NCBI GenBank assembly: GCA_051294375.1
Contig: JBJCIZ010000470.1
Location: 1 to 43,806, forward strand
Source of the DNA: Paraspadella gotoi
Taxonomy: Eukaryota > Animalia > Chaetognatha
Direction of reading: 5' to 3'
DNA: 43,806 nt
Shown here piece after piece: positions 1,198 through 39,083 of the stretch. The translations under genes and the position numbers were made by a program. Numbering within the stretch: position 1 is the first letter of the stretch; every line of letters starts with the position of its first letter. Below the pieces are notes generated by a model. The model was not told the origin of the DNA, searched no databases, and saw only the letters and a program-made list of their open reading frames with translations.

Positions 1198-1478
1198 TCA
1201 AAACCTCCTTTTACGAATTCTGCCGCCTCTTCTTCGGTTTGATATGTTCGTTTGCCTTTGAGAAGTTGAACCGCCCTGTGGAAAAGAAAACGATTTTTAA
1301 ATACGTCTGAACTTCTACAGGGTTCTTAGACATAAAATACTGTTCGCTTTTAATCATTTACACTTAAAATCACCTTTTGTTTTCTGGAACGACGTCTCTT
1401 ATTTCCTTTAATTCGGTCGCGCCCATAAAGCGATCGCTGAAGGGACCCAAGGTCAACGTCTTTAGTTGTATAGTACAT
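1198..1478 (-). CDS. 60-aa Arg/Lys-rich putative viral core (DNA-condensing) protein, 2 exons
   Basis: Exons 1478-1374 and 1275-1198, intron 1373-1276 (GTGATT...CCACAG). Product MYYTTKDVDLGSLQRSLYGRDRIKGNKRRRSRKQK|GGSTSQRQTNISNRRRGGRIRKRRF. Absent from the ORF track. Confidence 0.6.
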
Positions 1479-1536
1479 AATGAAGTATGGTTTTCTATAA
1501 AATGTTAAATACAATATTCAATTTTTTTGCTGCAGG

Positions 1537-36800: not shown

Positions 36801-39083
36801 CGTGGGTTGGCGTCGCGGACCCCTTTTTCCATCCCACTTAGCGCGTGGGATTGTTGGGGGGGTGGGAGTGTCCATTTTCTTTAAGGGTGGCGTGGTCTTT
36901 GGTGGGGGTAAGGCGAGTTCCTCTTCGTGGAGACGTGGTGTGTCGAATCCACTCCTGTCACCACAAATTTAGTAAGTAGACAGGGATTTCTGAGCGAAAC
37001 CAAAGTGGATTTTATTTCTTCGAAAATAAACGATAAACAAGACGGTGTCAATTTTCAAGGCAGAGTGAATCAATACAGAATTCGCGTTCCCTTTTATACA
37101 GCCCAAACGGATCGGAGGTAAGGGTAAAATTTCCCGACCATTTGTTCATTGGCCGGGGCCATTTGTCTTTCAACCAATGAGAATGTTCCATTGTATTTCC
37201 GATCCGATCCGTTGATCCGATCCGTTGATCCGATCCGTTGATCCGATTCGATTCTTGAGTCTTGATTCCTCTGCGATGCTATTAAAAAAATTGAAAATTT
37301 TTAAAAAATTTTAAACTTTATATAGTAATTAAATAATTTAAATGCTTCCGTGCGCTAATTAATAGATAAATTTTAAAAATATTTTCATTTTCATTAACTC
37401 TCTAACAGTCACTTAACCATTATTTATTTGAGAGAACTTCTAGTTTATATTAAGGAATGAATAATAGATGTATTACTGAATTTAAAAAAAACCAAAAAAA
37501 AAACATTTAACGCATAGTTGCTTTTAACCCTCTCTCCAGGATTCTGCAAGCCGAAGTCAACAAAATCATGGAGGCTGCGGAAAAAAACCTCCCAGACTTC
37601 GCCACGGTAAAGGCATTGACGCTAGATTTGTTTATTTTCTTTTTGCCCATTAATTTATAGAAATTTTTTAAAAAAATTTTCAGCGATTCGTTATGCCAAT
37701 GGTGCGCATAGCGAAAACGAACTATGGGATGGATATCTCATACCAGGGAGATATCAAAGTCAAGACCTCGGACACAGCGATACCAGCTGGGTACTTCGTG
37801 CAAATCCGTCGGCTGAAAAGACAAGGCGACACATGGGCGTATGAGCCGCCGTCAGTTCCGGCAGCCGGCCTCCGACTGGGAGCTAAAGCTTTTGGACAAA
37901 TTTACAAACGTCTCTTTCTCTCTCACGAGGAGGGAAGAGAGACGTTTGGAGACGGAACAAGGATCCCAATAACGGTGAGATTGCGCAAAAAGTTGAAACA
38001 CAATAATTTTTCTTTACACGTTTAAGCGCCGTAACCAATCAAGAACTCTCTCTCTCTCTCTCTCTCTCTCTCTCTCTCTTTGGCGCTGTCCGTTTTACTG
38101 ATAGATTAGCATTAAATGTAGTTTCGACATCGTTTTGTTCTTAGTTGAGAAATAATTCGCTTTAACATCCTCAAGGAGCCTAAAGCTGCGATTAATCAAT
38201 ATTATTTATTATTATCTCTCTCTCTCTCTTTCATTCTTTCTGCGCTCTTTTAATTTTCTCAAACATTAATTTTCTACAGATTATTTCTGCCGGAAGGGGA
38301 TCTCTGGATGACGAGGAAGACGAGTGGGAAAGTTGCGTCCCACAAGCAACTAAAGTCGAACAACAAAAATGCAGATTTGATGTAAATCTGCATCAATCTC
38401 TGCTGGCCGAGGTTCTAAAGGACCACAAGACACTCTGCAACGAGGGATCTTGCCGCGCCTGCAAGATAAACGAGAAAAGAATAGAGAACTTTGACAGGTG
38501 AATTAACAAATAAATGAAAAGAAGAATTTTACATAATTTAATCAAATGAATCATTATGCATACTTTAAGACAAAAAATTAAGATAACAGCTTACTATGAA
38601 TTAATCTACCGTTCATCATTTCGTTTCGTTTTTTTCTTTTTTTAGGGACAATCGCGGGAAAGCTCTGAGAGAGGCCTACTCAATCCCTGTCGTCGAAACG
38701 CTTCTCGGGCTGGGGTGGATCAAGTCTAGAGGTAATTTGCCACACAAACGATTTAATCGGACAGCTTAGCGTAACTTGCTTGAATCTTCAATAAAGCTTA
38801 CAACCTCCTAATTTTCTTTTTTTTTTCCCTTCCTCCTGTACTATTTTCAGACGGTTTTCCAATCACTGACTCTCACGATGCCACGCCCTCAACGTCGACC
38901 GCCGCCAATGAACACTCTGGGAAAAGTCTCGCCGAATCTCTGGCGCGTCGGAAGCGCAACAGGGAAATGCGTGAGGCTAATTTAGCCCTGTTCAAGACTC
39001 CCGCGACGCCAAAAAGGTCGAAATCTGAGGATACAGAGTCTGACGAACTCGATGAATCGATGATAGAAACTCAGAAATATTAA
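27890..39083 (+). CDS. 393-aa protein, putative tandem PC4-like ssDNA-binding domains plus His/Cys cluster, 7 exons, intron 2 carries the LTR element
   Basis: Exons 27890-27953, 28233-28455, 37540-37606, 37684-37974, 38280-38497, 38646-38731, 38851-39083 join in frame (1182 nt). The phase-2 junction matches across the 9-kb intron. YFVQIRR...GLRLGAKAFGQI resembles PC4 VDIRE...GISL...W..L. Gene model is solid and the PC4 label is tentative. Confidence 0.65.
28887..29212 (-). repeat. 3' LTR
   Basis: Near-identical to 36971-37280 (GAGCGAAACC...AAGTGGATTTT...GATCCGATCCGTT repeats...GATTCCTCTGCG). Confidence 0.9.
29213..29224 (-). other. Polypurine tract
   Basis: Minus strand GAGGAGGGGGGG directly before the 3' LTR. 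Confidence 0.8.
30100..35371 (-). pseudogene. pol: Gypsy pol (protease, RT, RNase H, integrase), many frameshifts, boundaries approximate
   Basis: Aspartic protease CLYDTGASIN (~34370-34400). RT FYVDDLIL with a 1-nt insertion (~32865-32890). Integrase-like LSID (~30645) and SN-RAER (~30345-30370) remnants. RNase H inferred from position only. Confidence 0.75.
35420..36875 (-). pseudogene. gag: Gypsy gag-like ORF, frameshifted
   Basis: Series of overlapping minus-strand ORF fragments starting at ATG 36875, just after the PBS. Assigned by position. Confidence 0.6.
36922..36963 (-). other. Primer-binding site complementary to tRNA-Leu 3' end
   Basis: Plus strand ...GGAGACGTGGTGTGTCGAATCCACTCCTGTCACCA resembles the tRNA-Leu(CAG) 3' arm GGAGGCGTGGGTTCGAATCCCACTCCTGACACCA, CCA included. 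Confidence 0.75.
36971..37280 (-). repeat. 5' LTR
   Basis: Direct repeat of 28887-29212, followed on the minus strand by the TGG-starting PBS. Confidence 0.9.

Follow-up and report, generated by a model that had tools for sequence, protein, structure and literature searches.

Can the core genes of a Polinton be divided by spliceosomal introns while the element stays intact and mobile, or are such gaps marks of decay? The question is raised by a 43,806-nt stretch of contig JBJCIZ010000470.1 from the chaetognath Paraspadella gotoi (GenBank assembly GCA_051294375.1; hereafter the window), in which eleven Polinton/Maverick-type genes lie at 1198-39083 in two divergent blocks read from opposite strands. 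A first-pass annotation had described an apparently intact Maverick genome riddled with introns, from a lineage under selection that had gained them massively and was either active or domesticated. We give a probability of about 0.75 to the reading that the locus is a chromosomal Polinton of an old, diverse, still mobile and intron-rich lineage.

Mavericks are classically described as compact elements with intronless or intron-poor open reading frames (ORFs), as the first-pass annotation noted. According to the accessible portions of the papers cited here, 134 intact vertebrate copies have intronless ORFs with no introns observed, and Genewise "introns" were counted as degradation (PMC8097293). 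Nematode Mavericks are described with intronless core genes and introns in cargo genes only (10.1101/2022.07.12.499685), and one Polinton screen filtered for an ORF of 900 aa for the protein-primed family B DNA polymerase, pPolB (10.1101/2023.08.22.554363). The longest pPolB ORF in the window has 729 codons and falls below that minimum, and intron-like gaps are what the vertebrate survey scored as decay; the expectation that ORF-based screens would miss this element or call it degraded is borne out for at least one published screen.

The window is eukaryotic chromosomal DNA, rich in A and T and with numerous tracts of (AG)n and (AT)n. Since pPolB, an integrase and capsid genes are all present, 1198-39083 is assigned by its predicted gene content to a chromosomal copy of a Polinton/Maverick. 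The minus-strand block runs from 16156 to 1198 through a packaging ATPase, a PZ-like gene, ORF413, the integrase, a minor-capsid-like ORF, the major capsid protein (MCP), a protease and a small basic protein, and the plus-strand block from 18438 to 39083 through a zinc-finger ORF (ORF786), pPolB and an accessory gene. Successive intergenic gaps along the minus-strand block are 34, 480, 13, 1, 264, -17 and 58 nt, the negative value marking the overlap of the protease start with the MCP stop. Gaps as small as -17, 1, 13 and 34 nt show that viral-type compact gene packing is retained.

Gene models were built by picking exon boundaries from candidate splice-site lists, and each was checked for an ATG, a stop codon, frame and internal stops. 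Thirty-four introns are predicted in seven of the eleven genes (MCP 6, integrase 3, ATPase 3, pPolB 10, PZ-like gene 4, small basic protein 1 and accessory gene 7), at a density of 1.8 per kb of coding DNA, and the five core genes for MCP, integrase, ATPase, pPolB and the PZ-like protein hold 26 of them. "Riddled with introns" thus fits these seven genes; the protease, the minor-capsid-like ORF, ORF413 and ORF786 are intronless. The earlier counts for MCP, integrase and ATPase recur in the checked models, and its total of about 40 in the window compares with 34 at 1198-39083, four in the right flank and at least one in the left, or 39 or more. The "about 11" introns of pPolB were revised to ten. 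An eleventh near the start was rejected, as relatives align through 21367-21419 and the first two gaps are one 318-nt intron, and a 30-nt intron at 21830 was rejected in favor of the 21940 acceptor that relatives prefer (length offset 0 in 11/11).

Over 18,576 coding nt, each of the eleven spliced models runs from an ATG to a stop codon in a whole number of codons, with no frameshift and no internal stop, the last as the first-pass annotation had stated for the spliced proteins. Thirty-two introns have GT-AG and two GC-AG ends, phases 0/1/2 are distributed 13/14/7, the median length is 132 nt, and mean intron GC content is 0.31 against 0.35-0.49 for exons of the same genes. Read-through would meet an in-frame stop in every intron, including 13 of a length divisible by three. 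Leave-one-out splice-site matrices told the 34 donors apart from 644 exonic GT dinucleotides with an area under the curve of 0.974; for the 34 acceptors, set against 1085 exonic AG dinucleotides, the value was 0.924. The GT/GC-AG ends, the donor consensus and the pyrimidine-rich acceptors are those of U2-type introns.

Several introns interrupt catalytic motifs that their removal restores. In the ATPase, Walker A (GP|SECGKS) and Walker B appear only when introns 1 and 2 are skipped, and in pPolB, where Exo I-III and motifs A-C were all located, intron 4 splits the Exo III Asp codon and intron 8 the first Asp codon of motif C. What we take to be the D, D, E motifs of the integrase lie at positions 97-98, 160 and 195 of the model read with X at each junction, and integrase intron 2 starts directly behind the second Asp. 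Expected motifs were located in the integrase, pPolB and the predicted ATPase, in line with the retained catalytic residues noted in the first reading.

Other kinds of insertion fit poorly. Rfam covariance models gave no group I or group II match at gathering score in the window, and self-splicing types were rejected on that basis; group I introns are described in cryptophyte Polinton-like viruses (PMC12220804). An all-against-all comparison of the 33 introns shorter than 2 kb yielded only seven short or microsatellite/low-complexity matches, and junction repeats were at chance level (mean 2.2 nt, 2.3 in shuffles). An introner origin was rejected, the introns being mutually unlike and without excess junction repeats. 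By sequence, the introns look old, and the gaps are almost certainly true spliceosomal introns. That the locus is instead a dead copy, with gaps that are disabling insertions or introner copies and with over-fitted spliced models, is very improbable. Such a reading could draw on the lack of RNA support and on introners known in dinoflagellate Polinton-like proviruses, where they mostly arose after integration (PMC11957031), but it would have to accommodate splice ends, conserved frame and restored motifs in 34/34 gaps, the dissimilarity of the introns to one another and to Rfam group I/II models, and 18.6 kb of coding DNA with no other lesion. It is also contradicted by relatives that carry introns themselves, through the zero-offset junctions and the one relative available as DNA that are described next.

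An independent view of the junctions came from relatives of pPolB. A HMMER scan with the 729-codon ORF as query returned 290 clusters (50% identity level) at E <= 0.001, and 150 of the 290 were analysed; among these 150 matches listed, identity was 26-46%. The pPolB exon series, in which an X marks each junction, served as reference for the alignment of 152 relatives, and the length offset across introns 1-7 was zero in 131 of 144 spanning cases (8/9, 11/11, 25/32, 42/42, 30/33, 12/14 and 3/3 for introns 1 to 7). Introns 8-10 lie beyond the reach of the aligned relatives and are based on splice signals, open frame and restored motifs. A profile built from 15 relatives alone scored the exon series at 819 bits and the longest ORF at 550. 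The relatives are ORF calls from public assemblies; for 20 clusters looked up, the sole named member was a "hypothetical protein", and no relative was found among named proteins. One relative locus was present in JGI metagenomes, and none in IMG/VR or in prokaryote genomes. Word-based homologue searches found none for the pPolB exon and none among very long proteins, and with an alignment as query they gave four already-related proteins.

These relatives appear to be split by introns too. Their ORFs break off within the polymerase, and many have a T-rich or microsatellite-derived tail at their start or end. The final residue is Arg in 38 of 150 relatives, against a background of 6.3% (p 1.4e-13), as expected of an ORF that runs into a donor AG|GTAA or AG|GTGA and so gains an Arg and then a stop. 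On the X-read polymerase the ends pile up: 12 near 620, 11 near 636, 11 at 656-663, 15 at 872-879, 8 at 948-955, 4 at 980-982 and 6 at 1160-1163. One relative (L001; 3.5 kb, 32% identical), seen as DNA, has four GT-AG introns of 85-571 nt in an otherwise stop-free frame, and three of them fall at the pile-up sites 620, 636 and 660, which confirms the reading of the relatives' protein ends as intron donors. The two intron sets are disjoint: the four of L001 are absent from the window, and the window's four in the same span are absent from L001. At the protein level, two relatives, P0102 and P0141, are interrupted at the same codon at which intron 4 lies in the pPolB of the window.

Break sites were also mapped onto a FastTree tree of 63 rows, of which 54 were labelled and nine, classed as "other", left out; the tree is unrooted and cannot separate gain from loss, and its 62 relatives are at most 35% identical to the window exon. 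The first break site required 27 changes, compared with 33.9 for shuffled labels, and none of 500 shuffles was as low, which suggests weak clade structure with much turnover. As a lead only, introns may prefer conserved positions: for the window alone the test was not significant (p 0.07, 6/10 introns scorable), while the window with L001 gave p 0.006 (n=10) and the relatives' Arg-stop sites p 0.05 (16/18 sites). Since the relatives are also intron-split and the intron set of L001 differs, the introns are best regarded as a trait of the lineage, subject to turnover, and not as decay of one copy. The massive gain proposed at first is thus recast as introns gained and/or lost, with the lineage-wide occurrence of introns upheld by the donor-like breaks and the four introns of L001.

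Whether such a lineage is mobile or has been domesticated is a separate matter. An ancient Polinton could have been fixed at one locus and have taken on a host function, for example particle production, with ordinary intron gain and with the relatives as its orthologues across many host species. Some features suit this scenario: there is no disruption in 18.6 kb of coding DNA while the introns and spacers hold an LTR (long terminal repeat) element, short repeats and microsatellites; the element sequence is clean beside an adjoining LTR pair that differs mostly by indels, like an unpolished repeat, which fits a low-copy locus; and no terminal inverted repeat was seen within the window. The retention of integrase and polymerase with their catalytic residues, and the viral, overlapping gene packing, speak against it, as do the 62 tree relatives, no more than 35% identical to the exon and with differing intron sets. 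Several clusters have many near-identical members on many contigs, and the recurrence of relatives in public metagenome-type assemblies would be easier to explain for multicopy than for single-copy eukaryotic DNA. We consider domestication unlikely and lean toward a mobile lineage.

A different objection concerns the continuity of the locus. Two copies could have been joined in assembly across the 10-N gap that separates the blocks, or the element could be an episomal nuclear virus that gained introns, as mirusviruses did, and integrated only occasionally; intron-rich nuclear DNA viruses do exist (PMC12768974, accessible portion). This is less likely still, although it would leave the reality of the introns untouched: the intron style is the same in both blocks, which together supply one non-redundant Polinton gene set, chromosomal residence is suggested by the LTR insertion, by repeats of host type and by long introns rich in microsatellites, and IMG/VR contained no relative.

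Several points weigh against an intact and mobile Polinton. The gap at 17959-17968 joins the capsid/integrase block to the polymerase block, so that two source copies are possible. The left element end lies outside the window, which opens inside a gene; no long inverted pair at the element ends occurs within the window. The earlier "apparently intact genome" is thus upheld for its reading frames and not for its full extent. In the search for RNA evidence of splicing, one small run, possibly of DNA, contained 10% of the sequence words and gave contigs of 160-250 nt at depth 2-5, in which no joint was seen. Aligned relatives were available for pPolB only; in all other genes, MCP, integrase, ATPase and accessory genes included, the junctions are placed by splice signals, open frame and restored motifs; only L001 among the relatives was seen as DNA, the intron calls for the others being indirect and some of their ORF ends coinciding with contig ends. 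In pPolB, Exo II has a Cys in place of what we take to be the usual Asn, and motif B lacks the presumed usual Tyr; the motif B change is common to the relatives and the Exo II change was seen for the window copy. Host repeats and an LTR element inside introns indicate long chromosomal residence, which also fits domestication. The nearest relatives are 32-46% identical, too far for the ratio of nonsynonymous to synonymous substitution rates (dN/dS), and the selection asserted in the first-pass annotation is accordingly argued from intactness, with no dN/dS basis.

Table 1. Predicted genes, introns and other features of the window
Feature	Position	Strand	Details
Flanking gene leaving window	1-673	-	Partial; at least 1 intron (431-178); element or host gene
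Small basic (Arg/Lys-rich) protein, 60 aa	1198-1478	-	1 intron: 1373-1276
Adenain-type maturation protease (predicted), 186 aa	1537-2097	-	Intronless
MCP (double jelly roll, predicted), 482 aa	2081-4323	-	6 introns: 4202-4146, 3935-3873, 3740-3622, 3384-3101, 3043-2969, 2632-2437 (GC-AG)
517-aa ORF beside MCP	4588-6141	-	Intronless
Retroviral-type integrase, 446 aa	6143-7723	-	3 introns: 7452-7356, 7144-7072, 6887-6818
ORF413, 413 aa	7737-8978	-	Acidic run; intronless
PZ-like gene, 626 aa	9459-12145	-	4 introns: 11404-11318, 11150-10799, 10580-10380, 10195-10030
A32-type packaging ATPase (predicted), 736 aa	12180-16156	-	3 introns: 15574-14349 (within Walker A), 13294-13051 (within Walker B), 12584-12289
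10-N scaffold gap	17959-17968		In 2.3-kb spacer separating the divergent gene blocks
ORF786, 786 aa	18438-20798	+	Cys/His zinc-finger-like motifs; zf-met E 0.039; intronless
pPolB, 1486 aa	21208-27059	+	10 introns: 21420-21737, 21830-21940, 22153-22355, 24469-24527, 24611-24674, 24915-24995, 25671-25952 (GC-AG), 26083-26145, 26328-26472, 26602-26666
Short repeat in pPolB intron 7	25739-25897		Inverted copy (88% identity) behind gene at 27143-27299
Accessory gene, 443 aa	27545-39083	+	7 introns: 27659-27853, 27954-28232, 28456-37539 (9084 nt), 37607-37683, 37975-38279, 38498-38645, 38732-38850
LTR-retrotransposon-like insertion, ~8.4 kb	28885-37279	-	Within accessory-gene intron 3; frames fragmented
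Flanking gene, 236 aa	40204-41376	-	4 GT-AG introns, style as in element; element or host gene

The genes named in Table 1 were recognized with unequal ease, and Pfam and PHROGs searches with single window exons gave sub-threshold matches only. The 2.1-kb exon 4 of pPolB, folded together with 58 relatives, reached a pLDDT (predicted local distance difference test) of 86.5, and the fold matched pPolBs of bidna-like viruses, adintoviruses, MELD viruses and adenoviruses (18 matches at E <= 0.001, from 4e-12 to 3e-4, with 9-19% identity). Against the PDB, Foldseek returned weak family B polymerase and OTU rows only (E >= 0.059), and sequence comparison gave no match. PF03175 was matched at E <= 0.01 by 4/59 aligned pPolB sequences, and the window's own pPolB exons had no Pfam match. 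Integrase exon 2 matched Pfam rve at E 0.0014, under the curated cut-off. In the ESM Atlas, the last exon of MCP matched clusters with Capsid_NCLDV and DJR-like_dom domains at 0.98, with a low recognition value (1833), and five MCP exons tried against Pfam had no match. The ATPase scored 0.89 to Pox_A32 clusters in the same resource, a lead only, and had no Pfam match. The protease keeps the order His78-Asp-Gln-Cys and matched clan CE families in Pfam at E 0.009-0.012 (Peptidase_C48 at E 0.012), under the cut-off. The 517-aa ORF is presumably minor-capsid (penton)-like, by its position and end motifs; it had no Pfam match, and its single-sequence fold reached a pLDDT of only 30. We take the 626-aa gene to be PZ-like and the 60-aa small basic protein to be core-protein-like.

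Some further observations concern single genes. All six MCP introns are in phase 1, each after a G, compared with 14/34 in phase 1 overall, a pattern that was spotted post hoc. The space that separates MCP from the minor-capsid-like gene is filled by a Lys-rich 101-codon ORF (4331-4636, minus strand), which also overlaps the minor-capsid-like gene. The ATPase has an N-terminal extension of 190 residues and, between Walker A and Walker B (13295-14348, minus strand), about 350 residues that are mostly charged and of low complexity. In pPolB exon 4, a CxxC...DHNH...CxxCN segment lies at about 23620-23750; Endonuclease_7 is matched in 2/59 relatives, and three of the four L001 introns and the largest break clusters of the relatives fall in or just behind the segment. 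Near-identical relatives on many contigs (P0102/P0218-P0230 and P0075/P0231-P0234) share one end point, behind a particular Gly of Exo III, and differ in the homopolymer lengths of their tails, a pattern that read-through into an intron would produce.

The inserted repeats all lie outside exons, which make up 63% of the element once the LTR insert is subtracted. This distribution is consistent with selection on the predicted proteins, and a preference for AT-rich targets could contribute. The LTR-like element has direct repeats at 28885-29210 and 36969-37279, a polypurine tract, a primer-site-like sequence and a retrotransposon peptidase match at E 0.039. Its repeats show neither TG...CA ends nor a clear target duplication, and the primer site resembles a tRNA 3' end, presumably that of tRNA-Leu. 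The two repeats differ mostly by indels (7 mismatches and 22 gap positions; 3 and 29 in a second alignment). The decay of this element was rejected as a clock for the locus, as the differences are mostly single-base indels resembling unpolished long-read error. The repeats at 25739-25897 and 27143-27299 are probably two copies of a host repeat. Both belong, with sequences at 17221-17481 and 39813-40148, to the short inverted-repeat sequences that resemble miniature inverted-repeat transposable elements, all in introns or spacers. A degenerate CCTAA-rich, telomere-like tract lies at 17750-17960, just ahead of the N gap, and a GC-rich tract at 42700-43300, past the right-flank gene, may belong either to an element end or to the host.

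The element was compared with known systems through the accessible portions of the respective papers. It shares with vertebrate and nematode Mavericks pPolB, integrase and MCP, a predicted ATPase and protease and, by position, minor capsid and PZ genes, as well as the arrangement in two blocks. It differs in the 26 predicted introns of five core genes, which are described as intronless in those Mavericks, and in its strongly diverged proteins, which are also longer (1486 aa for pPolB, 736 aa for the ATPase). Adintoviruses and MELD viruses likewise possess an integrase and a capsid module, and the fold of pPolB exon 4 resembles that of adintovirus PolB (E 7e-8 to 1e-7 in Foldseek, 10-15% identity); the accessible text on these viruses leaves splicing unmentioned, with no occurrence of "splic" and one, unrelated, of "intron" (PMC8502044). 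Intron-forming sequences also occur in the full-length Polinton-like elements of dinoflagellate eupolintovirus proviruses, where the introners are young, mutually similar transposon copies inserted mostly after integration and the intactness of the proviruses is stated as unclear (PMC11957031, PMC12166617). By contrast, the introns of the window are mutually unrelated, lack junction repeats and lie in intact core genes of a diverse lineage. Mirusviruses, as nucleus-dependent DNA viruses, also have GT-AG spliceosomal introns in core genes, including those for morphogenesis, but differ in their HK97 capsid, their placement in Duplodnaviria, large genomes, protist hosts and many introns with homing endonucleases (PMC12768974); none of the short introns of the window holds a gene. 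In the literature searched, with most subscription papers and Repbase reports outside its scope, we found no description of any Polinton lineage in which old spliceosomal introns divide intact core genes, and the accessible part of 10.64898/2026.07.28.741278 contained nothing relevant. New here are a near-whole core gene set in one place, an MCP gene interrupted six times and a large family whose intron sets shift.

Polintons are copied by their pPolB and inserted by their integrase. For a mobile, intron-rich Polinton, it is hypothesized that host RNA polymerase II would transcribe the element genes in the nucleus, where the major spliceosome would remove the introns, and that DNA-to-DNA copying by the element's polymerase would be followed by insertion through its integrase. 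Because such a cycle does not pass through reverse transcription, introns gained during long residence in the germ line would pass to daughter copies, as they do in host genes. Exons would stay clean under selection for the functions of polymerase, integrase, ATPase and capsid, while introns and spacers would collect microsatellites, short repeats and even an LTR element. With its 8.4-kb insert, this particular copy may be too long to move or immobile. Introns could possibly benefit the element, by letting it pass as a host gene or by tying its expression to host splicing.

A more far-reaching proposal, which we put forward tentatively and hold to be somewhat short of even odds, is that of a large, hitherto undescribed Polinton virus clade, with hundreds of polymerase clusters, fully intron-structured including MCP, mobile or infectious, and with intron turnover at a few conserved motifs, possibly through targeted gain. 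If true, an integrating DNA virus lineage would be disguised as ordinary host genes and would provide a rapidly evolving system in which to study where spliceosomal introns come from.

The assumption that Polintons are intronless is built into published screens, through the 900-aa pPolB ORF and the reading of intron-like gaps as decay, and standard searches of this kind would miss what is likely a whole lineage. Should intron-rich lineages prove common, then the diversity and host range of Polintons, and the number of their intact copies, are underestimated. Elements that are 30-35% identical and have non-overlapping intron sets would represent many independent gain or loss events in one gene, a compact setting in which ideas on how such introns originate can be tested. 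With introns in its capsid, ATPase and polymerase genes, the element would need nuclear transcription and host splicing for any cycle that forms particles.

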